64,000 nt of DNA from Mobula hypostoma (taxonomy: Eukaryota), in the NCBI RefSeq assembly GCF_963921235.1, contig NC_086108.1:56484001-56548000 (forward strand). Direction: 5' to 3'. Below are positions 1 to 64,000 of the stretch, in pieces. The notes beneath the pieces are model-generated. The model searched no databases. It saw nothing but the letters and a program-made list of their open reading frames with translations, and had not been told where the DNA came from. Numbering within the stretch: the stretch's first letter is position 1; every line of letters starts with the position of its first letter. Both the position numbers and the translations under genes were made by a program.

Positions 1-554
1 CCTAGGGCAACACTACCAATAATGGAGAAATTAAAATCAGACATAAACAAAAGCTCAGAATGGGGAGATTACAGAAATCACACTGTAGATTTTAGAGCTA
101 ATGGAGATTTCAGAGTTAGATGGTGAAGGTCACAGAAGGATTGAAGCATTGCTAGACAAGATTCAAGTTAGGGTTTGCAATGTAGTTGTCAATGAATTCA
201 AGTTACAGATGGTGGATGATATCCGCCTGCCAAAAAGTTTGGAAGAATCAGGTGTAGAGATTTGGATGAGTGTTTCAGGAGCAGTTGTGATTGATTATTT
301 ACATCAGTATTGCATAGAACCCCCTTGATGTGAATGGTCCGGTTCAGCTTCATGCTCCTCATCACCTCCAGAACATCCAATCTTCAAGCTGGCTATGTAC
401 CACAATTTTGTCCTGTCTAATCTTGTTTTTTTCCTGTTTTTAAAAAATACACACGGTGATAATTTAAAGTAAGAACATTTGTTTTCTATCTGTAAAGTAC
501 CTGCAGATAATAGAATGAAAAAACAACTGAATCTTTATTTTGTCTATGATTCAG

Positions 555-931
555 GAGTGAATGCTAATGGTTCAGCTGAGACGTCAGATCAGTGGCATGA
601 TTATGGTGAAGTCAAGGAACTAAACTACAATGGGCCTGTCAATAGTTCCACAATTTCAGGACCTGCAAAAATGAGCACAAATGGCTGTGAGAAAGATGAT
701 GGATTCTGTGATCTCAGTCTGGTAAATGCGCAGAATGAGAATGATGAGTTTGAATCAAATTGTGAAATCCCAGCCAAGAGTCTGAAAACAGAAGATGACA
801 CTGAAATTGAGAAGAACAATGCAGATATATCAGAAGCAAGCTTGCATGTGAAATCTGATGTTTCTGAGAATTTGATTCTGTCTGATTCCAGACATCAAAT
901 GCCTGTTGAATTGGATGCTCAACAAATCTAG
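555..931 (+). CDS. MIER1: Last coding exon of MIER1 (mesoderm induction early response 1), beta-like acidic C-terminus
   Basis: Acceptor tttattttgtctatgattcag|GA at 554/555. Translation GVNANGSAE...NGP...TNGCEKD...NENDEFE...PAK resembles my recollection of the human MIER1-beta tail (GVSSNGPGE...NGP...TNGYETD...NENDFDE...RPAK). Stop TAG at 929-931. Convergent SLC35D1 neighbour matches human synteny. Confidence 0.8.
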
Positions 932-5700: not shown

Positions 5701-8345
5701 GAAATATTACAATATTGAGCTGATCGTAATGCCAGTTTATATAAAATGTCCCATTGTTTATCATCCATATCCCTACATTCCCATTATCTTGTCCTCTTCA
5801 CATAGCTTGCATGAATTGACAGGCAGATAAACTCCATCCCCAATTACTACACTGACAAAGACGTTCCAAGTTGACTTTCTTTAATGTAGCAACTGGCGGT
5901 AGGGTACAACTGACAGAAAGAAAAACATACAATCAAAAGGTGTCCAAATTCCCATTATGGTTAAGTACAAGGCAAGCATTAAGTATACCACAAATGATAC
6001 AAAATAATACACAAGGTACTGTATGCAAATAAGTTCCAAATATATCATAAAGATAGGCTACTGGTAAGCAAGATGTTGCTACATACAATGTATCTTATGC
6101 ACATTTTCTCACTACAAGTTAGCCAGAACATGTGGCCTGCATTATTCAATCTGTATTTTATCTGCACACAAACCATTCAAATATCTCTAATTTGTGGTAA
6201 TATGCATATACATCAATAAATAATAAACCCAAAGATTACTTTTACATACTGACGATGCTTTCAAAGACCTGAATGTCAGGATGACATCGAATGAAAAGGC
6301 ACAAGCTCTCCCTCAACTCTACATGGAGAACTGTCTCGACGCCTGCTGATTTTGTACAGGTCCTTGCTGTCAAACTCACCTGGAGGAATGGGATAAGGGC
6401 CACTTTTCTGTGTGAGCAGCGTGGCAGGAGTGAGAATGAATGGATCTTCTGCATCTGTAGACATGGGCACTAGAGGTCTATTGTTCACAATGGCCATCAT
6501 CTCGGCCATAAATAAAGGTGGTGAGCACCTCATGAGTGAGTTTAGAAGGCCATGACTGGAGAAGCATGGAGTCCAGGATTTTGAGGGTGATGCCCATCAT
6601 TCTCGCCCATGCCCCTCCCATATGGGAGGAATGAGGCGGATTGAATGTCCAGGTACAGCCCTTTTCCGAGAGATACCTCTTCACCACATCTTCGTCAACA
6701 TTGGAGGAGATTCCTAGATCTTTGCACGCTCTGATGAAATTCGTTCCCTTGTCAGAATGAATTTGCTTGACTGGCCCATGGATCGCCAGGAACCTTCTCA
6801 GGGCATTTATAAAACTTGAGCTGTCCATGGAGTCTATGATCTCGAGGTGGATGGCTCTGATGCTTAAACAGGTAAATAAAACTGCCCATCTTTTACTTTC
6901 GGCGTGGCCACCCCTCGTACGGCACGCAGCAATGGTCCAGGGTCCAAATACATCAACACCAACTTGTGTGAAAGGTGGTTCCATGCTGAGTCTATCAGGA
7001 GGTAAGTCAGCCATTTTCTGGACTTCACATGTCCCCCAAAGCTTACGGCAGGTGATGCACTTGAAGATGAAACAGCTTACACACCTTTTGGCACCCACAA
7101 TCAGTAACCAGCTGAGTGGACAGCGCCCTCAGTAAAATGGCATCCTTGATGTTGTGACTCCACATGGTAATGTTGCACAAGGAGTAATGTAACATGATGC
7201 CATTTGGGAATGATTAGGGGCCTCTTCTCTTCATGTTCCAACTGTGATTCCTGTATACGTCCACCGACTCTTAATAGGCTGTCCTCACTAATAAATGGAT
7301 CTAGCATCCTCAGCAGACTGTCCTTAGGGATATCTCTTTGGGTCCTGATGCATTCCATTTCTTCAGCATAAGTTTCCTGCTGCACAGATCGAATGATGAC
7401 ATTTTTGCTCCGACTGAGTTCCTCCACTGTGTATGGTGTCTCACAATGATATCATCCCTTGCAGTTCCCTGTAGAATCTTCTGAGGTCTTCTTGAAAAGG
7501 CATGCAATATGTCTGAGACGAGATATGGCACGAGTAAGAGCCCCCCCCCACGGTAGAAAAGCGCTCAAAGCGCTGAGATCCAAGTCGGCTGTCTTGGGTA
7601 GTGGAAGTGAGCACTGTCACTTGCGTGCGAATTTCTTTATCTTGTTCTGAGTCCACTAGATCAAAGACAGAGTGGCGGCCATTTTCCAGAGTGTTGGTAT
7701 AGTAGGTGCTCACAGTGGCGGGCTTGTGGACATTTCCTAGACAGACGTTGCCAACAATTACCTATCCCAAGTCCAGTTTTTGAGCATAGGGGGAGTCATG
7801 TGGCCCATTTACCTGTTTCCGTACTTTATGGATCCTCATGATGTCTCTTCCAAACAGGATCATGATGGGAGCCTGAGGGCCGAGCTCTGGGATCGTTTGC
7901 GCCAGAGGTTTCAGATGAGCATGATGTGGTGCTGCTTCCGATGTGGGGATTTCAGAGTGAGTATTCGGAATCGCGTTACACTCAGTATTGGTAGAGATAG
8001 AATAACCTGCCCATCCATGGATTCCACCTGAAAGCCATGCACTCTTCTGCCTGCTGTCTCAACCACACCAGCACACGTCTTAAGGAGAATTGTGGCCTGT
8101 GATGTTCAAAAGGTCAAAGAACTCAGACCTTACCAATGAGCGATTACTCTGATCGTCCAGTATTGCATATAACCGGATTGCCTTTTCCTGCTGGCCAGCT
8201 GGGTAGACTTTCACGAGACAAATCTTTGAGCACGATTTTCCAGTGAGGTCGCCATCAACTCTACATGGAGAACTGTCTCGACGCCGACTGATGATGGCAT
8301 CAACTAGAGACACAGATCACATGACCTAAATGACTGCTATATAGC
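5700..8345 (-). mobile_element. Internally deleted BEL/Pao LTR retrotransposon (protease and integrase remnants, LTR fragments)
   Basis: YAILDDQSNRSL protease and integrase QKMADLPPDRL...VGVDVFGPW...LFTCLSIRAIHLE...SDKGTNF...HMGGAW...NNRPL are typical of Pao. An LTR-like 31-mer is duplicated at 6313-6343 and 8255-8285. Confidence 0.85.
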
Positions 8346-9205
8346 CGGTCGATCTGCGCGCTGGCGCACGTTCCCCGGGATAGGGCATCTGAGGGCTCGT
8401 TGAGCTTCCTAGGCCTGTACATAATGTCATAGTTGAAGGTGGAGAGTTCGATTCTCCACCTCAGAATTTTATCATTTTTGATTTTGCTTGGTTACTAAAT
8501 ATGAATGCGACTGAGCGCTGGTCAGTTAGCAGGGTGAACCTTTTGCCAGCGAGATAGTGCCTCCAGTGCCTAATAGCTTCCACAATGGCCTGGGCCTCTT
8601 TCTCCTCCGCGGAGTGCTGAATTTCAGGGCCTGAAGGGTACGGGAGAAGAACGCCACTGGTCTTCCGGCCTAGTTGAGGGTAGCAGCCAGTGTAAAGTTG
8701 GAGGCGTCACTCTCTACTTGGAAGGGAATGGCCTCATCGACCGCATGCATTGCTGCTCTGGCAATGTCCCCTTTTATGTGGTTGAAGGCCGCGCGGGCCT
8801 CGGCTGAGAGGGGGAATGTGGTGGACTTGAGCAGGGGGTGGGCCTTGTTTGTATAGTTAGAGACCCATTGGGCATAATTTGAAAAGAAGCCCAGGCACCT
8901 TTTGAGGGCTCTGAGGGTATTGGGAAGAGGGAGTTCCAACAGGGGGCACATACGGTTGGGGTCAGGGCCAATGACTCCGTTCTCCATGACACACCCAAGG
9001 ATAGCAAGTCGAGTGGTCCCGAATACACACTTGTCCTTGTTATAGGTGAGACTGAAAGCTTTGGCCGCTTGGAGAAATTTTTGGAGGTGGTTGTTGTGAT
9101 CCTGCCGGTCATGACCGCAGATGGTGATGTTATCCAGATATGGGAACGTGGTCTTCAGTTGGCATTGGTTCACCATCCAGTCCATTTCCCCCTGGAAGAC
9201 AGATG

Positions 9206-10790
9206 CAGGTGTCCCCCACCTTTCGAACGTTCGCTTTATGAAACCTCACTGTTGCAAAAGACGTACATTAGTACCCTGTTTTCGCTTTCAGAAGGTGTTT
9301 TCACTGTTACGAAAAAAATCAGCGCGTGATAAAAGGCAGCGCGCGCCCCGAGCAGCCGCTCTCCCCCGGATTCAGAACAGCATTCTAGCCAGCATTGCTT
9401 AAACACGTGTCTGTGAGCAGCCGTTTGCAAGATGAGTTCTAAGGTATTGGAAAAGCCTAAAAGAGCTCGTAAGTGTGTTACACTTAGCGTAAAACTAGAC
9501 ATAATTGAGCGTTTCGATCGTGGTGAACGAAGTAAGGACGAAGTGAGTTTGGCTTGTGGAAGCTGACGAACATGATGTTGAAGAGGTTTTGGCATCCCAT
9601 GACCAAGAACTGATAGATGAAGAGCTGATGCAATTGGAAGAGGAAAGAATTACAATTGAAACTGAATGCAGTAGCAAACGGACTGAAAGTGAAGTCGTCC
9701 AGGAACTGAACGTGAAGCAACTGCGTGAGATTTTCGCTGCAATGATAAAGTACGACTTTAATTTTGAAAGGGTACGTAGGTTTAGGGGATATTTGCAGTT
9801 CTTACAAAGAACTGTATGATAGAAAAATGCGCGAGGCTCAGCAGTCAAGCAAGCCTTCCACATCAGCCGCAGCAGACGACGAACCTCAACCTTCGACATC
9901 GAGGCAGGCAGTCATAAGAGAAGATGAGCTGCCTGCTCTAATGGAAACAGGCGACGAGATGACACTCCAGTGTCCCAACACCCCGCAATTCGCGGAGAAT
10001 GCAGCGGTAGCCGGGAGGCACACAGCACATCTTTAAGAAAAAAGCCGAAATAAACATGCTAATTAATTAGGTGCCGCCCGACACGTAATTGTTGGCTCAG
10101 ATCAGAGACGACGCAATCGGAAATCGGCACTGATCTGGGCCGACAATTATGTGCCGAGTGGCACCTAATTAATTAGCATGTCTATTTCGGCTTTTTTCTT
10201 AAAGATGTGCTGGATGCCTCCCGGCTACCGCTGCACCCCTGCATGCTTCGCGGTTCCGTATCTGTCGGCAGCCTGGAGGGTGGGGGCCACTGCACCACCC
10301 AATCTGCGACGACTCAGCCTAATACACCATCGTCAGTGTGCTCAGCGCTGAACCAATTCCGGTAAGTGACACTACACTGTACATACATTATTTCTACTTT
10401 ACATAGGCTCTGTATTTTTATGTGTTATTTGGTATGATTTGGCAGCTTCATAGCTTAAAGGTTACTGGAGAGCGCTTGCACCGTGTTTTTGCCAACAACG
10501 CTTGCGTGAGATTTTCGCTCCGGAGAACAGTTCAGTAATGATTGTGGAAAAGTATTTCTACTTTATATAGGCTGTGTATTTATCATATCATTCCTGCTTT
10601 TACTATACGTTACTGTTATTTTAGGTTTTATGTGCTATTTGGCATGATTTGGTAGGTTATTTTTGGGTCTGCGAACGCTCACATATTTTTCCCATATAAA
10701 TAAATGGTAATTGCTTCTTCACTTTACGACATTTCGGCTTACAAACTATTTCATAGGAACGCTTTACCTTCGGATGGTGGGGGAAACCTG
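9206..10790 (+). mobile_element. Non-autonomous Tigger/pogo (Tc1-mariner) DNA transposon inserted in the Gypsy RT
   Basis: TIRs caggtgtcccccacc / ggtgggggaaacctg. TA target at 10791-10792, left copy reads TG. RT frame GVTNGV|SVFQ rejoins across the insertion. Remnants of an HTH (VKLDIIERFDRGE) and of the Tigger C-terminal EEVLASHDQEL..EEL. Confidence 0.85.
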
Positions 10791-12627
10791 TACACCATTC
10801 GTGACACCAAAGGGGGCCCACAGGAAGTGATAAAGCCTGCCGTCTGCCTCGAAGGCGGTGAAAGGGCGATCCTCCCGGCGGATGGGGAGCTGATGGTAAG
10901 CGGATTTTAGGTCTATGGTCGAGTACACCTTGTACTGTGCTATCTGATTGACCATATCCGTGATGCGGAGTAGAGGGTACGCGTCGAGCTGCGTGAACCT
11001 ATTGATGGTCTGGCTATAGTCCACGACCATCCTATTCTTCTCCCCGTTCTGAACAACGACCACCTGCGCCCTCCAAGGACTTGTGCTTGCCTCAATGACC
11101 CCCTCCCTGAGCAGCCGCTGCAACTCCGACTTAATGAAGGCTCTGTTCCCCGCGCTGTACCTCCTGCTTTTAGTTGCCACAGGTTTACAGTCGGGGGTCA
11201 GGTTGGCAAACAGCGGTGGAGGAGGGATCCTGAGGGTGGAGAGGCCGCAAGTGGCGTCGGTGCTGCGGCAGTTGGCATGGTGTTGGGTGGGATGTGCGGG
11301 TCGGTGTGTGTGTGTGGTCAGTAGCGGGGTATGTGACGTATCCCTACAAAACTGGGGATTTACGACAGTGATTGGTGGGAGGGGCCCATCATACTTCATT
11401 GTCACGCTTTTCAGGTGGCTCTGGAAGTCGAGCCCCAATAGCACAGAGGCACACTGTTGAGGTATGACCAGTAACGTAAAGTCTAGATATTCTGTGCCCT
11501 GCACCACTAGCGTCGCTACACAAACCCCCCGGATGTCTGTTGTATGCGACCCGGAAGCCATGGTGACCCTTTGACTTACCGGCCATATCATGAGTCCACA
11601 ATGCTGCACCGTGTCCGGGTGGATTAAACTCTCCGTGCTGCCTGTGTCAAACAGGCAACTTGTCCTGCGCCCCTCCACCAGGATGTCCATCATTGACCTT
11701 GCGAGCTGGTGGAGAGCACTTTGGTCGAGGGTCATGGAAGCCAGGGTTGAGTCGCTGTCTTGGTCCAGCGCGGTGGGGTGCCCCGTGAGCACCCGTTGGT
11801 TGTAGGTGGTGGGAGGTGGCGCCGACCAAGATGGCCACCCCCATGTCTCACACGTGGTGGCGGCGTGCAGGGAAGATGGCGGCAGTCAAGATGGCGACCC
11901 CCATGTTTCGCACGCGTCCTGCTCGCGGTTTGGACTTACAGACCTTGGCGAAGTGGCCCTTCTTTCTGTAGCTGGAACAGGTAGCTTGTCGGGCCGCGCA
12001 GTGTTTCTGGGGGTGCTTCTCGAGTAGCACTTCGCGGACTCGCGACTGGCAGCAGCCGAGGTCAATTCGCCGCCGGGTTGCAGGGTCTGCGGCACCCACG
12101 AGGCCATCGGGGGATCGTGTGCCTGGAGAGCCTCAGAGTTGTGCAGGGCGGCCTCCAGCGTATCGGCCAGCTCGATCACCGAACTTAAGGTAAAATCAGC
12201 TTTTTCCAACAGCCGCTGGCTGCATGCTGTCCTGCCGTCAGCCCCTGGCAATTGCAGGCTCGCACGAGTGTCTGTAGGGCCTGGACGAACTCAGCACTTG
12301 ATTCCCCGGGCCGCTGGTGCCGAGTCGCTAAACAATGTCGTGCATAGACACTGTTTATCAGCCGCAGGTATTGTCCTTTGAGGGCGCTCATCACGCTGTC
12401 ATAGCTCGGATGGTCTCTGATCAGCGAGTAGACCCGTGGACTGACCCTGGGGAGTAGGACTCTGCGCCTCGCTACAGGGTCGGCCGCTTTAATCTCCTCT
12501 AGGTATGATTTGAAGCAGGCCAGCCAGAGTTTGAAAGCGTTTCCAGCTTTAGGTGTTTGCGGATTGAGGTCTAACTTGTCTGGTCTGAGAGCGTGTTCCA
12601 TGCTTTAAAATTTACTGCGAATAAAAT

Positions 12628-12860
12628 TGAAGCACCTTCAATAATTCCAAAAGACTGAAGTAGGGTAAATACTGAAAGGCTTTTATTTGCAGTAAAATGT
12701 GACCTCCATGCTGAGTGTCTGCCCCTGGTCTGAGGGGGAGGAGCAGGGCGAAATCACCTTTAGTCAGGGGTCTGTGGGAGGAGCCACAGGGATAGTCAGC
12801 AGATGGCGTGTCCGGACAGTTAACCCAATTACAACATATATGTGCGTGTGGTTTACCACA
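12628..12860 (-). repeat. 5' LTR (233 bp) of the Gypsy element
   Basis: On the minus strand it starts TGTGGT and ends TTCA, contains AATAAA (12682-12687) and lies just upstream of the gag ATG. Confidence 0.75.
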
Positions 12861-12899
12861 AAATGCCACCAAATGTCTGATTCCACTGCTATGCTGTTA

Positions 12900-13360
12900 A
12901 CCCAATACAGGCACCTGCCACTCTGAATAAAAGGAACTTGCCCCTCATGTCACCTTTAAACTTACCTCCTCTAACCTGTAAATCTGCGGGGTTTGACATT
13001 TCTACCCTGGGGAACAGATTCTGACTGACTATCCTGTCTGCCTCCTATCGTGCCTCTTAAAATTTTAAAAACCTCTGTCAGGTGTCCCCTCAGCCTCTGA
13101 CATTCCTAAGGAGAGCAACCCAAATTTGTTCATATTCTCTAATACAAATGACCTCCTGATAAACGTATGCAGCTTTTCCATAGTCTTCACGTTCTTCCTA
13201 TAATGGGGCACACAATACTCCAAGTGTGGCCTGACCAAAGTTTTATATAGCTGTAGTATGAGCTTCTTACCCTTATAATCAACACCCCTACCAATGAAGA
13301 CATGCATGCAACATGCCACCTTTACTACCTTAACAACTTGCTAAGTCACTTTCAATGAAC
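12900..13360 (-). mobile_element. CR1 3' fragment, continuing at about 20073-20900 beyond the LTR insertion
   Basis: LYKTLVRPHLEYC; the CR1 sequence ...ttcaatgaac | ctatgaat...agatccctct rejoins across the LTR element. Confidence 0.75.
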
Positions 13361-13789
13361 TTTCATTAAATATTGTGTATTTAATGTTTCAGTAATATTG
13401 TAAATATATTGTGTGATTAAGCATTCTTTTTCATTTAAATAATTCATTACGGGTTATGTGTAGAAATATGTAAATTGTATACATTATCACGCCACCTCAG
13501 TTAAAGTAATTATGAAACTAGACTCGCCTTTTGGACTCCCTTGATTTTTTTTTCATTTAGTGTTATGATTTGGAGTTACAAAATATAACAGTGATGATGA
13601 GAAAGTTTTAAATTAACCCAAGTCGACTATCTACCTTTCGAAGCACAAGAAGTTTGAGTTTTTAAAAAAACGCTGCAAAAAATGGTGGAGTTTTAAAAAA
13701 GTGCAGCATGTGTTCTTGAAGAAAAAGCTTCAATTTTTTTTAAACGGCAGAAAATGGAAGAATACATGGGTTCGTAATCATGATAATAA

Positions 13790-16400
13790 AAGGGCTGGAT
13801 TTAGTGGGGCCGGGGCCCGCCCCTGCCAACACCGTGAAATGCTGCTGTACCAAGCAAGAAAAGGCAAGAACAAGAGCAAAGGTCATACTGGTCTAAATAT
13901 CAAAGCTGTGGACCAAGACATTGGTTTAGTACAATACGTAGGCTATAAACTTACAGGCCTTAGGAGGGAGGACAGAAAGTAATGCAGATTCGTAGTTTGA
14001 AGGACAGCATCTAAAGCACTCAAAAATTGACCTAGGCTTAGTTGGCTTAGTAAAGTTATGAGGGAGACAAAGTATGATGTATCCAATCTTAAATCTTTAT
14101 TTAGCTGTTGCTGCACATACCATAGGCCTTATCTCTCAAACAATGCCAAAGCATTTTTATCCGGTATTTTTCTCAACTGTGTGTTCTGAGAATGTAAAAT
14201 GGAAATGAGAGACAAAAAGGCCAAGAGACATGGCACTATGGCAAACTAGGAAACTTGACAATACTCCAACAATCTTTTTGAAAAATGAGATCTAGCACAT
14301 ACTAACCTATACTATACGTCGGTCTAGTATAGGGGTCCCCAACCTTTTTTGCATTGCGGACCGGTTTCATATTGACAATATTCTTGCAGCCCAGCCGACC
14401 CGGGGGTGGGGGGGAGGGGGTAGGGTTGCCAACGGACAAGAGTAGCAGTCAAATACGTTGTTTACCCCGAGAAAGACTACAATGACCATGAAGCCTTGCG
14501 TGGGCACCAGTGCGCATGTGTGTAGTGCTGCTCTTCAAATCGTTTCTGGCGATTCTGTTCGGGGGTGGGGGGGGGGTTAATCACGACTGGAATATAGGTG
14601 ATACGTGGCTAATACACTCAATTTTGTTTCTAAAAGGGTTTATCTGACGAATTTAATATTAAACACACAGCGCATATTTCCCTCGCATGATTATAGTGAT
14701 AAGTCAATTATCAGGGGAGGACAGGGGAGCTTGAAGTAAATATTGAACGAACTTCCAGTAGAAGTGGTAGAGACAGGTTCGATATTATCACTTAAATGAA
14801 AATTGGATAGGTATATGGACAGGAAAGGAATGGGGGGTTATGGGCTGAGTGCAGGTCAGGGTGAGAGTAGTGTTCGGCACGGACTAGACGGGCAGAGATG
14901 GCCTGTTTCCGTGCTGTAATTGTTATATGGTTATATAGGTCACTTACAAGTCAATAGCATCATAACATTTTAAGTAACGTTTGGATATTAAACATACTTT
15001 CCCCGTATGAACATATAAAATCATTGCAACACACCAATATCGCTGAATCAGTGGGAGCCCTGGGCTTGTTTTCCTGCAACAAGACGGTCCTATCGAGGGG
15101 TGATGGGAGACAGCGATACTCGAAGGAGGTTCCTTATGTCCAGTCTATTTAGTTTTCGTTGCATTCATTGCAGAGATATGTTGGAAGTGGAAGCAACATT
15201 TTCAGTGCATTCGTGGCTACCTCAGGATATTTAACCTTGACTTTGATCCAGAATACTGGCAGAGATGTTATGTCAAACATACTTTTCAGCCCGCCGTCAT
15301 TTGCAAGCTCGAGGAGTTGATCTCCTTCCCGTGTTGACATGGATGATGCGCGGGTAATGACCTCGCATGTGTAATGGCTCAACAGTGGGCGTGACAGGGA
15401 ATGAGGAAAGGTGCAGCTGACTCCTATCGCCAAATCATATCGTTTCCTCACAGCCCGGTAGCACATGCTTTGTGGCCCGGCACTAGTCCACGGCTCGGTG
15501 GTTGGGGACTGCTGGTCTAGTAGACACACACTGTTTTTGCAGTTCTGTATCTATTCTTCCGCTGTCAGACGCTAGTGTAATGTAGGTCAGTACAGTTTTC
15601 TTGTGGTGTTCACTATTTTCATGCTCTCCTATGCGCTCAGCGGCATGTTTCCAGTCGCTAAAGCCAGTTTCGAAGCTGGACTGACAGTTACCATCACTGA
15701 AGATGCGGCATGCAAAGCAAAACACACAGCCGGTGGAAGGGGAATATAAGAGCCATTGCCTTGATATGTACTCACCATTTATGAGCTTGCGTTTAAAGTG
15801 AAATTTGAAGAAAAAATGTCTCTGCTGTTTGTATACTCGTTCCGAAGCTTTGATATCCACATCCTTATTCTGGCAGGACTCCAGCCCTTTCTTAGTCCAG
15901 TATGCTCACTCGGACTGAATCATCTAACATCTCCTTTCCCCAGCAAGCAGGATCAGTGCTGTAAAGATCCTCAGTAGCGGTAACATTAACATTAATGGCG
16001 GCCCAACTTGGTTGTTCAGAGGCCTCTGTGGTCAAAGTCATGCTCTCTGCCTCTTCAATGGTAGCTGCTGACTGTGGTAAGGACAGCGGTCCTGTGCTAA
16101 TGCTGGTGCTAGCGCTAGCCGTTGAACAAGTCTCCATTTGTCCACCGGTCTCAGACTGTGACAAGAGCGATGGTACTGCTGCATCATCGAGAACAGGTTT
16201 AAAAAATTCTGTCAATTTCATTATCTTTTTTAATGCTTCTTTCTCACAGTCCTCTTTTTCTTTTTCCTTTTTTCTTTTCTGTGCTCCACTCCCGTATTTT
16301 TTTTTTGTCCGCCGTGATGATGGCTACCTATTTTGGGCCCCTCTGCAGCTCTGGCCCCTGCGCTGCAGCCCAGCCTAGCCCTGCCTAAAGGCCGGCCCCG
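13790..16400 (-). mobile_element. hAT transposon remnant (TTF zinc-finger, ZMYM1/Tip100-like) nested in the LTR element
   Basis: RQWLLYSPSTGCVFCFACRIF...GFSDWKH...HENSEHH ZnF_TTF domain; imperfect GC-rich termini agggctggatttag / ctaaaggccggccccg. Confidence 0.8.
14330..15514 (-). mobile_element. hAT-Charlie/Buster-type non-autonomous element nested in the TTF-hAT
   Basis: TIRs taggggtccccaacc / ggttggggactgctg; perfect 8-bp TSD gtctagta (14322-14329, 15515-15522); hATC fragment DQLLELANDGGLK...FW.KV...YPE...LLP...YLC; internal CR1 3' piece at about 14715-14930. Confidence 0.9.
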
Positions 16401-16740
16401 AAATAAAAAACCAGCAGAAATAGCTAGCTACATTGGAAAGATTGACATGTTTGATTACACAACAGATAACTGGATATTGTATATGGAGTGAATTGAGCAG
16501 TAGTATTTTAAAGCAAATGAAATAGTTGAAAGAAGTAAGTGCCAATTTTGCTGAGTGCATTGGGTTTAAAGCCATACAGCTTGCTTAGAAATTTAACTGC
16601 TTTAAAAGCTGGAAAAAGCTGGAAGAAGCTTTGCTGATATTGCAAAAGTAATACAAGAACATTTAGAACCAAAACCAATGTTGATTGCAGAATGCTGTAG
16701 GTTTCATAAGTGGAATCAAAAGGATGGGGAGTCCATTTCA

Positions 16741-17520
16741 AGGTTCAAGATCCAAAAAACTTTGTTGTCATTTTAACCATACATCAGCTCTGCAGGGCAG
16801 AATGAGACAGCGTTTCTCAGGAGCAGTGCAATCATAACATAACAAACGCAACACTAAATAATAAACATAACAATAAATAGTAAAACACAACAGCCACATG
16901 TCAGTTAAAATCAGTTATAAGTGTCCAGTGCAAGTTAAAAGTGTCCAAAGCAGAGTCAGCTAGAGCAGCTATTTAGCGCAGTCTGACTGCCTGTGGGAGG
17001 AAGCTGTTTAGTAGCCTTGTGGTTTTAGTTTTGATGCTCCTGTAACGTTTGCCTGATGGCAGAAGAACGAACAGTTCATGGAGAGGGTGTGAGGGGTCTT
17101 TAATGATGTACCGTGTCTTCTGGAGGCATCGACTCTGAAAGAGGTCTTGGACAGAAGGTAGGGAGACCCCAATAACCTTCTCTGCTCCCCTAACCACCCT
17201 CTGCAAGGCTTTTTTGTCGACAGCACTGCAGCTGGAGTACCAGGTTGTGATGCAAATAGTCTGCATACTCTCAACTACACCTCTGTAGAATGTAGTTAAG
17301 ATGTTAGTGGGGAGTGATGCTTGTTTAAGCTTCCTCGGAAAGTGCAATCTCTGCTGGGCCCGTTTCACAATCCCACTGGTGTTCCTGGACCAGGTGAGAT
17401 TGTCCGAGATCTGCAGCCCAAGGAACTTGATGTTTTCCACTCTCTCCACTGTGGAGCCGCTGATGCTAAGGGATGTGTGCTCAGGCTGAGACCGTCTGAA
17501 ATCGACGATCATCTCCTTGG
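16741..17520 (-). mobile_element. 5'-truncated Rex1/Babar-like LINE inserted in gag
   Basis: DUF1891-type ORF MIVDFRR...KFLG.QISDNLTW...KRAQQRL...LLPSGKRYRS...SF.PQA. gag frame rejoins across it with ttca duplicated. Confidence 0.85.
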
Positions 17521-18211
17521 TTCAGAGTACATAGCTGAATTGAAGAGATTATATAAGCATTGTCAGTTCGGTAATGACCTTAATGATGCACTGAGAGAAC
17601 GTTTAGTTCGTGGAATCTTAAAATAAAGCATTCAAAAATGGCTCCTAACAGAAGCACAGTCACGTTTAAAAGAGCTGTTAAGATACGTGGCTGGATCAAT
17701 GCAAACAGCTGACAGAGACGCAACTGAGTTGCAGCCAGGAATGAAAGTTAGTCTGAACAAAATTGCAATGTCTAAATAGAAACCTGCCTTACTGAACAAA
17801 TTATGTAACCATTGTGGCAGGGGCTTATATATACCAGACCAATGCAGGATTAAAGATGAAACCTGCAGAAAATGCAACTAAGTGGGACAAATACAAAGAG
17901 CATGCCGGTCAGACAAAAATAAATAAGACTTCAAAGGAAAGAGAAAAAGCTAAAAAGTTTTAGTTTCAAAAGAAGCACTAATCTGTATGCTATTGATGAA
18001 AAATCGATAATGATGAGGGATTAGGACTGAATAGCCTTGAGATTTACAATGTGAAAACTAACGATGGACAAGCAATAACTTGTCTTACACCAGAAGTGAA
18101 CAACAAACTAATTAAAATGGAATTGGACACTGGCTCAGCAGTTCTAGTCATTACACAAAATGAGGTTGAATGGCATTTCAAAGATACTGAACTGAAGCCT
18201 GCAGATATCGT

Positions 18212-19177
18212 ACGTCCACACTACGCCGCATAATTTTGAAAACGAAGCTTTTACTCTTCGTTTTGCCTTCCCGTCCACACTGAAACGGTGTTTTCAGCCC
18301 CCGAAAACGGAGATTTTCGAAAACACTCTCCAGAGTGAACAAATCTGAAAACGTTTAATATCCGGCATAGTGTGTACGGGGTAAACAGAGAGATTTAAAA
18401 ACGCTGTCATCACAACACCACAACAACAATGCTTTTTTCTGCTTCTGCTTGGTACTGCGCAAGCTGTTATAACGCGCAGTCGGTGTGAACGGCGTGAGAG
18501 TTAAATTGTAAAGTGAGCTTTTTTGGCTATTTAAAAACACTGTCATGACGTGCCGGAACAGATGTTCGTTGTTTTCTTGAACGCCACCACCTAACAATTT
18601 CAGAACAGACGGACGAGACTGAAGCCAGTTGACCCATAGCTTACTGAATAAATAAGTATACTCACTTCGCCCTGTTTTCTGTCCTTGCTTGTATGAAGGT
18701 GGTTTACCAATTTATGCAAGTACTTCTCTGACAATAGATGTGTAACATTGTATGGAAATATAAGATGACGCTGATGCAGACGTTTTATACATTTAACAAG
18801 GTGTTTTATTAATATAACAGAGTTAGTTTTTCAATGTTCGTCGTCAGCTGGGTTATACTGTCCGTGAACTCCCTGTTGGTTGCCTCCATACGCTCCAGTA
18901 TTTGTTTTTTTTTAAAGTTTTATTACCTCCTGTGCGAGAGCCAAGAAAGAGCAATTCCTTTAAAGTTTTTCTTCTCTGTAACTGGACAAACGCGCACGAA
19001 GTATACCGTTTCCTCTTCGCTTGTTTTCTGCATGTCCTGCATATGCCCAGTAGGAGGAGATTCGCCCACATATCCGCCTAATGTGGACGGAGATATTTTG
19101 AAAAACGCTTAGTGTGGACGCCTGTCGTTTTCACTCGAAACCGGCGTTTTCAAAATTATCCGGCGTAGTGTGGACCA
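18212..19177. mobile_element. MITE / non-autonomous DNA transposon (PIF/Harbinger-like TIRs) inserted in the protease region
   Basis: Inverted termini gtccacactacgccgcataattttgaaaacg / cgttttcaaaattatccggcgtagtgtggac with subterminal gtccacac repeats; no coding capacity. Superfamily is inferred. Confidence 0.75.
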
Positions 19178-19452
19178 GAGTAAAGATAACTCCTGTGGAA
19201 ATGGCATTCGAAGTGAAATACAAACACCGACAGGTCACATTGGGCTTGTAAGTGGTAAAAACAAAATGGCCAGCATTGTGGGGAAGTGAGTGGCAGAGAC
19301 AACTACGACTTGATTGGAGAGCCATCCACAATTTGTATGCCACCTCTCCTGCAATAAATTCAACTGAAAGCAAATTAAAGATGGTACTGGATGATGCAAC
19401 AACCGTCTCCGTGCTGTACACCATGAACTGTTGCCCAACAGAGAGAAAACGG

Positions 19453-19890
19453 CTGTTGGTGCCAACCTCTGTGGCTCTGGTTGGAAAGCATCTTGGGCCA
19501 AGGAAGAACCATACTGGCCAGTGGAATTGTGAACGTGATGAATTCAGTAGTCCAACTACAACAGCTTTTGTAGGCAATATATCTGAGGAAGCTGCTGATA
19601 TGTTAATCAGGCAGTTACTTGTGAAGTATGGCTTGGTTTTAACCTGGAAGAGAGTTCAAGGAGCTTCAGGAAAATTGCAGGCATTCAGTTCTTTTTGAGT
19701 GCAATGAACCAGAACCTACTGTGCGTGCATTTGATTTCTTGCATGAACTTCAAATGGGAGATAAAAAGCTTCTTGTAGAAGTAGAAGCAAAGACCAAAGC
19801 GCAGCTAGATGAATGGAAAGCCACAAAGAAAGGAATCAATGGAGATATGAAACTGAATATTCATCAAATGATGATATGAATGAGGAAATA
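19453..19890 (+). pseudogene. RBM25: Intronless RBM25 fragment (RRM region) captured inside the LTR element
   Basis: LLVPTSVALVGKHLGPRK...PTTTAFVGNISEEAADMLIRQLLVKYGLVLTWKRVQGASGKLQAF, then after a frameshift ECNEPEPTVRAFDFLHELQMGDKKLLVEVEAKTKAQLDEWKATKK. Matches my recollection of vertebrate RBM25. Confidence 0.9.
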
Positions 19891-20189
19891 CATTGATTAT
19901 GCTTTATTCTATGTTTAAGTAGTTCATTACGGGTTATATGTAAAAATACATAAATTGGATGTCATGAAGCAAGCACGTAATATGCGTGCACTTTACAGAC
20001 ACACATTTCTCGGCTCTCTTGTATTCCTTTCAACTAGTTTTTTAATGTTTCAGAGTTAAACAAAACATAACACTATGAATAATCTTCTCAAGATCCCTCT
20101 GTACTTCGGTGCTATAAAGAGGCCTACTATTTAACCTTTTCCTTCCATTAGACCTACCAGGTACAGCAACACACTGTTTGTTTATTTAG

Positions 20190-20395
20190 TGAGTCAGTGT
20201 AGAACAGGCCCTTCCAGCCCAATGAACAGTGCTGCCCAGGAACCCACCTATTTAACACCAGCCTAATCACAAGACAATTTACAATGACCAATTAACATAC
20301 TAACCAGTATGTCTTGTCTTTGGACTGTGAGCGCAAACCAGTGCATCTGGAGAAAAACCATACAGTCACAGGCAGAACGTACAAACTCCTTACCA
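20190..20395 (-). mobile_element. V-SINE (HE1-like) remnant
   Basis: Reverse complement contains ggagtttgtacgttct...gtttttctccagatgcactggttt, the V-domain pattern. Confidence 0.6.
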
Positions 20396-43185: not shown

Positions 43186-43474
43186 AAGCAACACACAAAG
43201 TTGCTGGTGAACGCAACAGGCCAGGCAGCATCTCTAGGAAGAGGTACAGTCGACGATTCAGGCCGAGACCCTTCGTTAGGACTAACTGAAGGAAGAGTTA
43301 GTAAGAGATTTGGTCTCTTACTAACTCTTCCTTCAGTTAGTCCTGACGAAGGGTCTCGGCCTGAAACGTCGACTGTACCTCCTCCTAGAGATGCTGCCTG
43401 GCCTGCTGCGCTCACCAGCAACTTTGATGTGTGTTGCTTAAATTTCCAGCATCTGCAGAATTCCTGTTGTTTGC
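43186..43474. mobile_element. Penelope pseudo-LTR fold-back (arms 43186-43308 and 43314-43439)
   Basis: Near-perfect inverted repeat with a 5-nt loop; the arm sequence is nearly identical to the 3' end of the Penelope element at 63205-63325. Confidence 0.9.
43339..43374 (+). ncRNA. Minimal type I hammerhead ribozyme, intact core
   Basis: agtc CTGACGA agggtctcggcct GAAA cgtc gact: stem I, core, stem II and a palindromic mini stem III. Confidence 0.75.
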
Positions 43475-54590: not shown

Positions 54591-55066
54591 CTCTTTTGCC
54601 TTTAAGCAGGATAATTTCAAACCAGAAAGCCATCTTTCAGTTTACTTGCAATTGCTAAAACAATGGAAAGTTTCACTGAGTGATGTCAAGCAGTATTTAT
54701 TCCTCAAGATCCAGCTCACTGATTATTCATTTGGCATTCTGCCAGGATCACTCAATTCTATTTCTTGGACCCTGATCCAAACATACAACAAAAAGCTGAA
54801 TTCCAGCTCTGGCAAGAGTGCCACCTTTCCTTGTTCTCTCTAATTTACTTATTTTAAAATTGCTGTGCGGACCAGCCATTGCACTGAGCAGTAATTTGTT
54901 ACATGGCCTGAAAGCTGCAGTCCTTTAAATGTTTTTCTTTGTAATAAGCATACTATGAATATTAAGAGTGAAAATGAAAAACCACTCCTCACTTTATTTA
55001 ATAATTGAACTGTATAATGAAATTCAATTTATTGTTACAATTTGTAACAGTGTTGTAACTTGAAAT

Positions 55067-56237
55067 CAATCATCATGGCTTGGCTTCGCGAACGAAGATT
55101 TAGGAACAGGCTGCCCATGTCTGCTGCAGGCTCGCCGGTGGCTGACGAGGCCAATACGGGACAGGCAGGTCCGGCCACAGCGGCTGCAAGGGAAATTCTG
55201 TTCTGGGTTTGGTGCTGCTGTGTCACGGTTCTTCCTCCCTCTCCTTTTATCTTCAATGCCAGCCCTGCGTGCGTTCTCAAAGGAGGAGACAGACTGGTGA
55301 ATGGTGTGTCGCCAGACCTCGCGATCGGAGGCTAGATTAGACCACTGGCGATGGTCAATGTGACAGGCACCAAGGGATTTCTTCAGAGAATCCTTCGGTG
55401 CCCCTCTGTCACGGTGGCCAGTGGAGAGTTCGCCACACAGCACAATATTGGGATGATCCTCCATCCTGGAGACGTGTCCTGCCCAACGCAGCTGCGTCTT
55501 CAACAGCATGGCCTCGATGCTGGTGACCTCCGCCTGTTCGAGGACTTTGATGCTAATGATGAAGTCATTCCAGTGGATGTTGAGGATAGTGCGAAGGCAG
55601 CGCTGGTGGAAACGCTCAAGGAGTCGTAGGTGGTGACGGTAGGTCGTCCAAGACTCAGAGCCGTACAGGAGGGTGGTCAGTACAACGGCTCTGTACATGC
55701 TGATCTTTGTGCCTTTCTTCAAATGTTTGTTGTTCCAGACTCTTTCGTACAGCCTGCTGAATGCGCTGTTTGCCTTTGCCAGTCTGTGTCAATCTCTTTG
55801 TTGATCTTGGCATCTGACGAAATGGTGCACCCCAGGCAGTTGAACTGGTGGACTGTCTTCAGCTCTACCTCACCGATGGTGATGTGGGGAGGGTGGTAAT
55901 CTTCCTGAGGTGTGGGCTGATGGAGAACTTCTGTCTTCTTCAAGCTGACTTCCAGTCTGAAGAGCTCGGCAGCCTCTGCGAAGCAGGATGTTATACGCTG
56001 CAGGGCTGTCTCTGTGTGGGCAACAAGGGCAGCACTGTCGGCGAAGAGTAGCTCTCGGATGAGTTGCTCCACTGTCTTGGTGTGGGATTGTAGTAGCCTC
56101 AGGTTGAACAGGCTGCCATCGGTGTGGTATCAGATGTAGGCATCGTCCTCGTCATCAAGGTCTTCTGTGGCCCTTTCGAGCATCATGCTGAAGAAGATGG
56201 TGAAGACGTCCTCATGCCCACTCTCTTCACCATCTTC
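55067..56237 (-). mobile_element. 5'-truncated RTE (BovB-like) LINE with TSD and a short 5' inversion
   Basis: LLFADSAAL, LLYGSESWT, QLRWAGHV and a C2H2 finger CSRC...H...C; (gat)n tail; 11-bp TSD taacttgaaat (55056-55066, 56238-56248). Confidence 0.92.
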
Positions 56238-58784: not shown

Positions 58785-61510
58785 CAAATGGAAACCAAGG
58801 CATATGATTTAGTGGCCATTGCAGAAACCTGGTTGCAAGGTGGAGATGACTGGGAATTAAATATCCAAGGGTATCAGGTAATATGAAAAGATAGGCAGGA
58901 AAACAAAGGAGGTGGGGTGGCTCTCTTAATTAAGGATGAGATCAGGGTGATTGTGAGAGACGATGTAAGATCTAGAAAGCAGAATGTTGAGTCCATCTGG
59001 GTAGAGATTAAGAATAGTAAAGGAAAAAAAAAAATCACTGGTGGGAGTTGTCTATAGGCCACCTAATAAAAATATTGCAGTGGCAGAGGCGATCAACCAA
59101 GAAATAACTGAGGCTTGTAAGAATGGAACAGCAGTTGTCATAGGGGATTTTAACTTCCACATAGATTGGGTGAATCAGGTTGGTCAAGGAAGTCTTGAGG
59201 AGGACTTCATAGAATGTATCTGTGATAGCTTTCTTGAGCAGTACGTTAGTGAACCTACAAGGGAAAATGCTATCTTAGATCTAGTCCTGTGCAATGAGAC
59301 AGGTAAGATTAACAATTTTGTAGTCAGGGATCCTCTTGGAAAGAGTGATCATAGTATGATTAAATTTTGCATCAAATGGAGGATGAAATAGTTAGATCTA
59401 AAGCTAGTGTATTATGCTTGAACAAGGGAGACTACAACAGGATGAGGGAGGAGTTGGCTAATGTGGATTGGGAGCACAGGCTATTTGGTAGGACAGATGA
59501 CGAACAGTAGAATACTTTCAAGGAGATTTTTCACAGTGTTCAACAAAAGTATATTCCAGTCAAAAGCAAGGACATTAAGTGTGGGGAGAGCCAGCCTTGG
59601 ATAACTAATGAAATAAAAGATAGTATCAAACTAAAAGCTCATGTGTACAAAGTCACAAAGAGTAGTGGGAGACTGGAGGATTGGGAAAACATTAAAAAGC
59701 AACAAAGAACAACTAAACAAGAAATAAGGAAAGGGAAGATAGAGTATGAAAGTAAATTAGCACAAAATATAAAAACAGATAGCAGAAGTTTTTATACGTT
59801 TGTAAATATATAAAGCAGAAGAGGGTGGCTAAAGTCAACGAAGGTCCCTTGGAAGACGATAAGGGGAAACTGATACTGGGTGACAAGGAAATGGCTGAGG
59901 CATCCAATGACTATTTTGTGTCGGTCTTCACACTGAAGGACACGTGTAATATGCCAAAGAATGATGTTATGGACAATATGGGAGGTGAGGACTTCGATAA
60001 AAAAATCACTGTCACTAAAGAGATAGTGATGAGCAAACTAGAGGGCCTGAAGGTAGGTAAGTCCTCTGGTCCTGATGGGATGCATCCCAGGGTGCTGAGC
60101 GAATTGGCAGAGGTTATAGTAGACGCATTGGTAATCATTTACCAAAACTCTCTAGACTCTGGGCAGGCCCCAGCGGATTGGAAGACAGCGAACGTCACGT
60201 CACTTTTTAAAAAAGGATGTAGGCAAAAGACGGGCAACGCTTAACATCTGTAGTCAGGAAAATGCTTGAAGCTGTTATTAAGGAAGAAATAGTGAAACAT
60301 TTAGAAAGGAGTGGTTCCATTAGACAGATGCAGCATGGATTCAGAAAGGGCAGGTCCTATTTGGCAAACTTACTGGAGTTCATTGAAGACATAATGAGTG
60401 CAGTGGATAGAGGGGAACAGGTGGATGTCGTATACTTGGATTTCCAGAAGGCGTTCGATAAGGTGTCGCACAAGAGACTTATAAATAAGATACGGATGCA
60501 TGGAGCTAGAGTAAGTGTATTGGCATGGATAGTGGATTGGTTAACCAATATAAGCCAGAGAGTTGGTATAAATGGGTGTTTCTCTGGTTGGCAGTCAGTG
60601 GTGAGTGGGGTGCCGCAGGGGTCGGTGCTGGGCCCGCAGCTGTTTACCATTTACATTGATGATTTGGAAGACGGGACTGAGTATAGCGTAGCAAAACTTG
60701 CTGATGACACTGAGTGGAAAAGCAAATTGTACAGAGGATGTGGAGAGTCTGCAAAGGGATATAGATAGGTATCTATAGGTTGTGCAGAAGGACTTGGGAG
60801 TGCTTGTGCATGAATCGCAGAAAGGTGGCTTGCAGATACAACAGGTTATTAAGGCGGCAAATGGAATGTTGGCCTTCATTGCTAGAAGGATTGAATTCAA
60901 GAGCAGGGAGGTCATGCTGCAATTATACAGGGTACTGTTGAGGCCACACTTGGAGTACTGTGTGCTGTTCTGGTCTCCATACTTGAGGAAGGATATATTG
61001 GCTTTGGAGGCAGTGCAGAGGAAGTTCACCAGGTTGATTCCAGGGATGAAGGGGTTAACCTATGAGGAGCCATTGAGTCGCCTAGGACTATACTCCCTGG
61101 AATTCAGAAGAATGAGAGGCGCTCTTATAGAAACATACAAAATTTTGAAAGAGACAGATAAGATAGAAGTAGTAAAGTTGTTTCCATTGGTGGGCGAGAC
61201 TAGAACTAGGGGAAAATGCCTCAAGATTCAGGGGAGAAGATTTAGGACGGAGATGAGGAGAAACTTTTTCCCCCAGAGAGTGATGAATCTGTGGAATTCT
61301 CTGCCCAAGGAAGCAGTTGAGGCTTCTTCACTAAATATATTTAAGATACAGTTAGGTAGATTTTTACGCAGTAGGGGAATTAAGGGTTATGGGGAAAAGG
61401 CAGGTCGATGCAGCTGAGTTTACGGACGGATCAGCCATGACCTTATTGAATGGCGGGGCAGGCTCGATGGACCGGATGGTCTACTCCTGCTCCTATTTCT
61501 TTTGTTCTTA
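58785..61510 (+). mobile_element. CR1 LINE, near-complete ORF2 (endonuclease + RT) with frameshifts
   Basis: [47 protein letters not shown] and RPHLEYC motifs; CR1 3' tail. Confidence 0.93.
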
Positions 61511-61589
61511 TAAGGGTTAGCACCATTTTTTGTTTATTTCAAAAAGTACGCAAAACATTCATGACCAAAGAGGTTAATACTGTTCTGCG

Positions 61590-63325
61590 TACTTCCATCC
61601 CCCATCAGGAAGGTCTCAAAGCTCTATGCTTCTTTTTGGATTCCAGACCTAATCAGTTCCCCTCTACCACCACTCTGCTCCGTCTAGCGGAATTAGTCCT
61701 TACTCTTAATAATTTCTCCTTTGGCTCCTCCCACTTCCTCCAAACTAAAGGTGTAGCTATGGGCACCTGTATGGGTCCTAGCTATGCCTGTCTTTTTGTT
61801 GGGTTTGTGGAACAATCTATGTTCCGTGCCTATTCTGGTATCTGTCCCCCACTTTTCCTTCGCTACATCGACGACTGCATTGGCGCTGCTTCCTGCACGC
61901 ATGCAGAACTCGTTGACTTTATTAACTTTGCCTCCAACTTTCACCCTGCCCTCAAGTTTACCTGGTCCATTTCCGACACCTCCCTCCCCTTTCTAGATCT
62001 TTCTGTCTCTGTCTCTGGAGACAGCTTATCCACTGATGTCTACTATAAGCCTACTGACTCTCATAGCTATCTGGACTATTCTTCTTCTCAACCTGTCTCT
62101 TGCAAAAACGCCATCCCCTTCTCGCAATTCCTCCATCTCCGCCGCATCTGCTCTCAGGATGAGGCTTTTCATTCTAGGACGAGGGAGATGTCTTCCTTTT
62201 TTTAAAGAAAGGGGCTTCCCTTCCTCCACTATCAACTCTGCTCTTAAACGCATCTCCCCCATTTCACGTACATCTGCTCTCACTCCATCCTCCCACCACC
62301 CCACTAGGAATAGGGTTCCCCTGGTCCTCACCTACCACCCCACCAGCCTCTGGGTCCAACATATTATTCTCCGTAACTTTCGCCACCTCCAACGGGATCC
62401 CACCACTAAGCACATCTTTCCCTCCCCCCCCCTCTGCATTCCACAGGGATCGCTCCCTACACAACTCCCTTGTCCATTCGTCCCCCCCATCCCTCCCCAC
62501 TGATCTCCCTCCTGGCACTTATCCGTGTAAGCGGAACAAGTGCTACACATGCCCTTACACTTCCTCCCTTACCACCATTCAGGGCCCCAAACAATCCTTC
62601 CAGGTGAGGCATCACTTCACCTGAGAGTCGACTGGGGTGATATACTGCGTCCAGTGCTCCCGATGTGGCCTTTTATATATTGGCGAGACCCGACGCAGAC
62701 TGGGAGAACGCTTTGCTGAACATCTACGCTCTGTCCGCCAGAGAAAGCAGGATCTCCCAGTGGCCACACATTTTAATTCCACATCCCATTCCCATTCTGA
62801 CATGTCTATCCACGGCCTCCTCTACTGTAAAGATGAAGCCACACTCAGGTTGGAGGAACAACACCTTATATTCCGTCTGGGTAGCCTCCAACCTGATGGC
62901 ATGAACATCGACTTCTCTAACTTACGCTAAGGCTCCACCTCCCCCTCGTACCCCATCTGTTACTCATTTTTATGCACACATTCTTTCTCTCACTCTCCTT
63001 TTTCTCCCTCTGTCCCTCTGAATATACCTCTTGCCCATCCTCTGGGTCACCCTCCCCCCTTTGTCTTTCTTCCCGGACCTCCTGTCCCATGATCCTCTCG
63101 TATCCCCTTTTGCCTATCACCTGTCCAGCTCTCGGCTCTATCCCTCCCCCTCCTGTCTTCTCCTATCATTTTGGATCTCCCCCTCCCCCTCCAACTTTCA
63201 AATCCCTTACTCACTCTTCCTTCAGTTAGTCCTGACGAAGGGTCTCGGCCTGAAACGTCGACTGCACCTCTTCCTATAGATGCTGCTTGGCCTGCTGCGT
63301 TCACCAGCAACTTTGATGTATGTTA
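61590..63325 (+). mobile_element. Penelope-like element (RT + GIY-YIG endonuclease + pseudo-LTR), 5' truncated
   Basis: QTKGVAMGT.MGPSYA, RYIDD, LPFLDL, YYKPT; VIYC.QC..C...YIGET.R.L.ERF.EH...HFN GIY-YIG; CT-rich 3' region. Confidence 0.93.
63228..63263 (+). ncRNA. Minimal type I hammerhead ribozyme in the Penelope pseudo-LTR
   Basis: agtc CTGACGA agggtctcggcct GAAA cgtc gact, identical to 43339-43374. Confidence 0.75.
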
Positions 63326-64000
63326 CTACAATGGGAGTTGTGTTGTCACAGCTGTTCTTCCCCTGAAAGCTGGGGCCATTACTCAAATCAGGCTAAAATT
63401 CAAAAGACAGTCAGCAAAATCATTACCAGAGGAAGAAGTCAGCTGCTATGACTGGTTATGGCCCATATTTGTGTAATCCATAACCCAAAATAAAGACAAG
63501 CACATCTCTAAACCAATGCTCAAATTTCCCATCCAATATACTCTACCATACAGGCTTCTCGATGGAACAGATGGCCAATGATAAAAGTGATAAAAGGTGA
63601 GCAATGTTTTAAAGGCAGTTGCAACATACGTAAATGTACAGCCAAGGCGTACACTAAGTTATCATTACTTCAAGGAAGGAATAATGAGAGGCAAGGAAGA
63701 GTTCCCATAGAGTGTTAGAACATCAGAAGAAAGCAAATAGGACTGTTCAGGGAGATAAAGACAAAGGAAGCAGAATAAATTGTGCAAATGAAAACACAGA
63801 GGTTGCCCACAACTGAGAACTCATCCATAGCCCAATGAAGAAACTTAGTATCAATGTCTTTGTTTTCAACAATTTACTAGGGTTTTTATCGAAGCTACAT
63901 TTCATTATCTGCATGGACTTAACTGCAGCTCAGCAGATCTTTTAAAAAGTAATTTTTAACATGACTGTGAACCTCAATGAGATTATTATTTTCTATCTAG

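Follow-up and report, generated by a model that had tools for sequence, protein, structure and literature searches.

A decayed, pol-less LTR retrotransposon carrying an RBM25 mRNA fragment in Mobula hypostoma, very probably one copy of a high-copy family

A number of long terminal repeat (LTR) elements that carry captured host genes have been described. The account of LTR-mediated retrocopies in animals by Tan et al. (2016, PMC5131818) describes, in the parts drawn on here, partial mRNAs that replace the internal open reading frames (ORFs) of an element, with short similarity at the switch points, and that are then copied on as non-autonomous elements, 18 sites being given for nine fly retrocopies. 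The same source, in its treatment of maize Bs1, gives three parent genes, 1-5 copies and a report of a functional hybrid protein. Two crocodilian endogenous retroviruses (ERVs), CrocERV29 and CrocERV31, carry KIT-ligand and nectin3 respectively, and nine KIT-ligand ORFs are described as being under purifying selection in the sections of PMC4299795 relevant here. A 2026 preprint covering 244 vertebrate genomes (10.64898/2026.06.26.734816) ties retrocopy abundance to non-LTR elements, and its main text places SUDS3 among the top retrocopy parents in cartilaginous fishes and makes no mention of RBM25. Here we describe an LTR element carrying a fragment of the splicing-factor gene RBM25, which lies in a 64,000-nucleotide stretch of the genome of Mobula hypostoma (GCF_963921235.1, contig NC_086108.1, positions 56,484,001 to 56,548,000 of the forward strand; hereafter the window, to which all coordinates refer).

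The unit at 13371-20072 is very probably a decayed copy of a high-copy, pol-less LTR family in which a piece of RBM25 lies in frame after the protease, was acquired in a single template-switch capture, spread on borrowed enzymes and was carried as neutral cargo. Three features of an LTR-mediated retrocopy, namely a spliced host mRNA (judged here from orthologue models), the replacement of internal ORFs between LTRs and secondary spread with a shared junction, are found. To judge from the parts of PMC5131818 consulted, the likeness extends to the partial nature of the mRNA, a junction that is sense and in frame and non-autonomous recopying, and it may extend to the lack of a poly(A) tail and target-site duplication (TSD) and to similarity at the switch point (here at the protein level), whereas the sites described there are few and the present family is old, runs by its depth to about 10^3 copies and occurs under at least three species labels. 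Bs1, as portrayed in the same source, is likewise an LTR element that is non-autonomous, holds exons captured from host genes and has switch points common to its copies, but the M. hypostoma copy holds a single cargo gene, the copies are far more numerous and it is for Bs1 that hybrid protein function has been reported. The crocodilian elements are also vertebrate LTR elements carrying captured host mRNA over related species; however, the relevant sections of PMC4299795 describe true ERVs in which KIT-ligand lies between pol and env and nothing major has been lost, whereas here pol has been replaced and the cargo is an RNA recognition motif (RRM) fragment. No description of an RBM25-carrying family was found in the literature searched, a body that lay outside repeat libraries, subscription journals and preprint supplements.

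The LTR-bounded unit measures 6,702 bp, of which approximately 4,350 bp are later insertions, and its own parts follow in the order LTR, leader, decayed gag, protease, intron-free RBM25 piece and second LTR. Motifs, the match to ENA protein P0260 and the LTR alignment thus uphold, with corrections, the architecture of LTR, gag, protease, RBM25 RRM and LTR that had been put forward in the original prediction. The parts of the element and its flanks, the latter formed by a CR1-type long interspersed element (LINE), are as follows.

13034-13361, minus strand: CR1-type LINE, left flank, split by the element; aligns with the CR1 copies of the window as far as 13361
13371-13590, plus strand: 5' LTR, decayed, start approximate; LTR alignment and ATAACA end
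13591-13790, plus strand: putative decayed primer-binding site and 5' leader, placed by position
16417-16740, plus strand: 5' part of gag, decayed; translation, assigned by position and from what we take to be a Gypsy-type gag, with no Pfam match
17521-17910, plus strand: 3' part of gag with two decayed zinc knuckles (17804, 17864); motif scan
18117-18212, plus strand: N-terminal part of the aspartic protease, DTGS at 18126; P0260 residues 1-36, E 4e-5, and Pfam gag-asp_proteas, E 0.077
19178-19407, plus strand: C-terminal part of the protease and post-protease linker, with a stop at 19249-19251; P0260 residues 36-126, E 4e-13, and high summed depth
19396-19407, plus strand: junction zone fitting both linker and RBM25; the P0260 alignment crosses it and the P0315 alignment starts at 19396, at protein level only
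19396-19887, plus strand: captured spliced RBM25 piece, which takes in the whole RRM and, at about 19405-19452, the isoform insert; protein matches, with frame breaks near 19690 and 19853
19886-20072, plus strand: 3' LTR, short of some 31 nt at its 5' end and not preceded by a polypurine tract; LTR alignment, and the same junction in organism B
20073-20190, minus strand: CR1-type LINE, right flank, in register with the left; CR1 alignment, and single-locus depth of 6.8-12.4 at 20158-20193

The captured piece was recognised through the ORF at 19252-19698 (148 codons, stop to stop), which matches RBM25 across vertebrates. The closest match is a shark RBM25-like protein, P0314 (XP_067833824/5), with 70/92, 39/52 and 7/14 residues alike in three frame segments over 19411-19887, and a further protein, P0315, carries the match back to 19396, giving a piece of about 490 bp that holds the whole RRM (residues 52-120 of P0314). 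The earlier placing of RBM25 at 19453-19890, over about 440 bp, therefore stands as to identity but not as to start and length. The ORF does run in frame from the protease tail into RBM25, as had been proposed, but a stop precedes it at 19249-19251 and the frame is broken near 19690, within the RRM, and again near 19853. Compared with RBM25 itself, which combines an RRM (PF00076) with a PWI domain (PF01480), the element has 76% identity to XP_067833825.1 over 92 residues, isoform insert included, but its piece is intronless and frame-broken; of the protein, only some 160 N-terminal residues are represented, and neither the Arg/Glu-rich region nor PWI is present. Pfam returned no family for the decayed ORF, a PDB search gave only weak generic RRM matches and the ESM Atlas gave no usable match for the chimeric ORF; five loci in a metagenome scan each matched the RRM part alone, at 48-64%, and none of seven viral contigs matched.

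The 5' end of the piece carries a record of the transcript that was taken up. In the shark proteins P0314, P0269 and the unnamed P0315 an in-frame insert of about 16 residues, or 20 in its longer form, separates the usual MIPVPM..APAT segment from the VLVPT exon, and it was seen in only three of the 316 proteins retrieved. The element took up the shorter form, and is thus a record of this isoform in the germline of its host when the capture took place. The insert and the best protein match together suggest a cartilaginous fish as host. The possibility that 19411-19452 was a third, unrelated sequence was ruled out by its match to these shark isoforms. Exon junctions are inferred near 19452, 19623, 19681 and 19843 from orthologue models that run into intron-like sequence (among the 316 proteins, 24 after QLL[AS], 13 with Q before VL.PT, 26 that depart after SGKLQ, four of them plain substitutions, and four after NG), and the window sequence is continuous through all four. 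On this continuity the piece would be a spliced mRNA. Searches at its ends found TSD candidates of at most 4 nt and runs of A of at most 3, and the separate poly(A) tail and TSDs that would mark an independent LINE-mediated insertion were thus not seen, a weak test, above all for the poly(A) tail, given that the 3' end of the cargo has probably been lost. The zone at 19396-19407 fits both parents at the protein level, which is the pattern that a template switch would leave.

The remainder of the coding region is that of a gag-protease element. Two zinc knuckles of the form CX2CX4-X-X4C lie at 17804 and 17864, as the original prediction had noted, although the His has gone from both and a stop lies inside the second, and the protease motif DTGS follows at 18126. 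P0260 matches the protease on either side of a 965-bp terminal inverted repeat (TIR) insertion; it has itself a weak RVP match (E 0.1) and ESM Atlas neighbours with retropepsin families. None of four gag pieces gave a Pfam match, and the gag assignment is therefore based on motifs, position and general likeness to a Gypsy-type gag. Decayed CCHC-type knuckles followed by a retropepsin constitute a Ty3/Gypsy trait, though not one specific to Gypsy. The element is presumably of that class, to judge from the style of its gag and protease. No reverse transcriptase (RT), RNase H (RH) or integrase (IN) was detected in the unit by tblastn with five RT, RNase H, integrase and gag ORFs of the window (7 of 82 matches fell in the unit, the best with E 0.71), and between 19407 and 19886 there is too little room for pol. 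Continuity across the exon junctions together with the missing pol bears out the view that spliced RBM25 mRNA was captured in place of pol.

The abundance of this arrangement was assessed by comparing 19150-20200 with Logan contigs at 80% likeness in 4 of 23 listed runs. Three DNA runs, X1, X5 and X11, represent organisms A, B and D respectively, organisms C, E and F (shares of 0.05-0.07) being left out. The contig records placed in them numbered 4,466, 4,873 and 4,438, and in X1 4,082 of the 4,466 were less than 95% alike to the window. Summed contig depth peaked over RBM25 at 15,194, 20,707 and 21,720 in X1, X5 and X11, against 6.8, 7.5 and 12.4 in the unique CR1 flank, so that peak and flank stand in ratios of about 1,750-2,760, and the depths of the protease tail (11,516-13,505) and LTR core (11,474-14,004) match that of RBM25 in order of magnitude. 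In each DNA run over 100 contigs differ from the window letter at 19398 and at 19404, the best of them with these positions 63-93 letters from the contig end. One listed piece (X11 record 9, 19270-19488) extends more than 31 letters to each side of the protease-RBM25 junction and record 10 does so marginally, whilst four others begin within 19383-19395 and continue into RBM25. The exon boundaries proposed above are likewise spanned by divergent DNA contigs (X1 records 1, 5 and 6; X11 record 16; X5 record 22), and the listed DNA contigs of other copies differ from the M. hypostoma copy by 16-20%. Depth and the contigs crossing junction and exon boundaries make the junction-bearing, intronless form a repeat family under three species labels. 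It is a high-copy family of roughly 10^3 copies, a figure that is an indication and not a count. The chimera is thus multi-copy in all three DNA runs, as expected of the non-autonomous family spreading RBM25-like copies that had been predicted.

The locus itself was also recovered in these runs. In organism A it is present without differences (records 7 and 8), and in organism B it is present too, its RBM25 piece and LTR meeting at the same junction (record 24, with 4 other letters and 11 gap letters). In organism D (X11) one contig appears, from its distance to the contig ends, to span the boundary between LTR and CR1, which suggests that the insertion predates the split from that organism. 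One 201-nt contig in run X9, guessed to be RNA, is identical to 19901-20101 and runs into the CR1 flank; it may be DNA and was not used as evidence. The low depth at 19870-19905 (84-143) does not prove the RBM25-LTR junction to be rare, since local decay gives similar dips at 19690-19725.

Several observations fit an origin of the two LTRs in one insertion. They are colinear along their length (13402-13597 against 19886-20078, with 139 of 180 columns, or 77%, alike, a score reached by 0 of 500 shuffles) and share the terminus ATAACA, at 13590 on the left and 20072 on the right, so that they are not repeats of different families. The position from 13591 on agrees with the decayed primer-binding site proposed earlier. 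The CR1 element rejoins across the unit, as had been claimed, in that 13361 and 20075 map to neighbouring positions (30760/30761 and 22712/22713) in two of three other CR1 copies of the window. The left LTR begins near 13371, and its first part (13371-13401) has no counterpart on the right, 31-40 nt at the left insertion end being unmatched at the right LTR. No polypurine tract was found before the right LTR, the longest purine run in 19840-19900 being 7 nt and lying within RBM25 codons. In LTR replication the U3 of both LTRs is copied from the 3' end of the RNA. Since the two U3s share this one source, and since the left LTR is complete and the right one truncated, a deletion private to this copy likely removed its 3' interior after insertion, and with it the polypurine tract and the beginning of the right LTR. 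The arrangement of 440 bp followed directly by an LTR would then be secondary, likely a deletion of this copy and not the layout of the family, whose RBM25 cargo may be longer.

The history that best accounts for these observations would begin with a spliced RBM25 mRNA, of the insert isoform seen in shark RBM25, co-packaged in a virus-like particle. During reverse transcription a template switch at the short similar stretch around 19396-19407 would have put RBM25 in the place of RT-RH-IN, probably once. The chimera, with its LTRs and leader, would then have spread to sites numbering on the order of a thousand, the high copy number being observed and the route proposed, and the pol-less hybrid likely multiplied with the reverse transcriptase and integrase of autonomous relatives. 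The present copy landed in CR1 before the split of organisms A and B, as the contigs indicate, and presumably of D. Its 3' interior would have been lost afterwards; it also received four nested insertions and decayed.

A variety of points weigh against this history. The right-flank CR1 alignments are weak, their scores being reached by 1 and 109 of 500 shuffles, and that of the third copy by 495 of 500, which amounts to nothing. A search by eye for a clean TSD around the whole unit found none, the best candidate being 4/6, and the two LTRs are 23% divergent. Intron loss is read from the gene models of orthologues and not from the host gene, and the similarity in the switch zone is at the protein level only. 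A pol-bearing helper with matching LTRs was not retrieved among six candidates. Summed contig depth is not a copy number and gives an order of magnitude only; within RBM25 it swings more than 50-fold following local decay (173-490 at two X1 bins), and because decay alone can move it so far the dips are uninterpretable. Finally, among the 32 pieces listed, with 14,238 more behind them, there is one clear and one marginal bridge of the junction at 31 letters per side.

An important consideration is whether the cargo was ever put to use. It is conceivable, but doubtful, that master copies produced a Gag-protease-RRM polyprotein in which the RRM of a host splicing factor replaced Pol and was kept by selection, aiding packaging, protection or splicing control of the element RNA, or its escape from splicing and decay, and so driving the expansion. 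The protease-RBM25 junction is sense and in frame, as a fusion would require, but a random insertion would achieve this by chance in 1 case of 6. The piece retains the whole RRM, divergent contigs run gapless through the junction zone (X1 record 1, X11 record 10) and the break near 19690 is, on the 12 of 40 rows listed, not common to many other copies, whereas the 75-76% identity to shark RBM25 equals that expected under neutral decay (0.72-0.79 at d 0.10-0.13). The 148 stop-free codons have a P of 0.03-0.17 for that stretch, a run that was chosen for its length and is flanked by stops. The purifying selection described for crocodilian KIT-ligand ORFs in the relevant part of PMC4299795 offers a precedent; however, none of the 316 retrieved proteins is a protease-RRM fusion, seven regex matches being RBM25-type proteins with a short motif by chance. 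Fusion proteins were also absent from the 120 of 266 and 150 of 201 matches listed, from 58 more and from six candidates, in searches of low sensitivity, and since full-length shark or ray RBM25 was itself absent from the 120 listed rows of the first of these, the blanks are weak. The M. hypostoma copy, with its stops and frame breaks and an identity that fits neutral decay, has neither an intact ORF nor a sign of purifying selection. The suggestion that a Gag-Pro-RRM fusion was once expressed is thus not borne out, and the RBM25 cargo is most likely a neutral passenger.

Two rather improbable histories concern the assembly of the locus. In one, RBM25 first arrived as a 5'-truncated processed pseudogene made by a LINE, pol was then lost by deletion and the chimera afterwards spread as an LTR element. 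CR1 LINEs are dense in the window, LINE insertions, too, typically show short similarity at their 5' junction, and with the 3' end of the cargo gone from this copy a poly(A) tail could have vanished. Such a history would, however, require two events at one site, and it must contend with the lack of a TSD or A-run at the cargo ends. The other, also unlikely, takes the locus as a composite whose right LTR came from a second family copy by recombination, with the LTRs not of one insertion, which would suit their 77% identity, the truncation on the right and the want of a clean TSD. However, the CR1 flanks are in register against two of three reference copies, and the divergence of the LTRs is not much greater than the 16-20% by which this copy differs from listed contigs of others. 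It is very improbable that tandem or segmental amplification, and not retrotransposition, lies behind the high depth, for although depth alone does not demonstrate dispersal, it falls to single-locus level in the CR1 flank and most records are less than 95% alike, as old dispersed copies would be.

That this copy is decayed, as first described, is evident from its stops and frame breaks and from four nested insertions.

13791-16400, minus strand: nested DNA transposon, ends approximate; candidate 8-bp TSD, 7/8 alike, and weak zf-C17orf113 match, E 0.013; we take its class to be hAT-like
14330-15514, minus strand: second TIR element within the first; perfect 8-bp TSD at 14322-14329 and 15515-15522, and TIR pair
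16741-17520, minus strand: nested LINE 3' fragment, which splits gag; ORF 16973-17521, Pfam PF09004, E 1.9e-16, and short flanking repeat
18213-19177, strand not assigned: non-coding TIR element, which splits the protease; 38-nt inverted repeat, 89%

The nesting reaches four levels, with a TIR element in the DNA transposon at 13791-16400, this in the leader of the LTR element and the latter in CR1. Just upstream, on the minus strand at 8670-12604, lies a separate LTR retrotransposon with gag, protease and RT pieces, which is not the helper since it has no similarity to the RBM25-carrying unit. An integrase-like ORF of another LTR element at 6478-7128, also minus, is presumably BEL/Pao-like. 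No tRNA genes were found in the 64-kb window. At 473-931, plus strand, there is a 152-codon acidic low-complexity ORF that is not transposon-like and is possibly a host exon, which would place the region in or near a gene. Palindromic repeats resembling miniature inverted-repeat transposable elements occur at 10000-10235 and at 43186-43439, the latter with a second copy at 63199-63327 (92-93% identity). An RTE-like LINE fragment lies at 55066-56129, and ORF fragments of RT and GIY-YIG type at 61450-62624 are presumably Penelope-like.

The mechanism of capture is a known one; what is new is its scale and age in a vertebrate, together with an RRM cargo in frame, LTR-mediated gene capture in animals having been documented mostly as young, low-copy events. 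The copy described here is dead; the details it adds are the isoform that was captured and a 3' deletion that is likely its own. A pol-less family with a splicing-factor fragment at about a thousand sites is a large natural sample in which tests of neutral against selected cargo may be made, and it offers a way, besides LINEs, by which retrocopies could become numerous in cartilaginous fishes. Numerous RBM25-like copies can confound read mapping and annotation and, if transcribed, could give rise to small RNAs directed at the RBM25 gene of the host.

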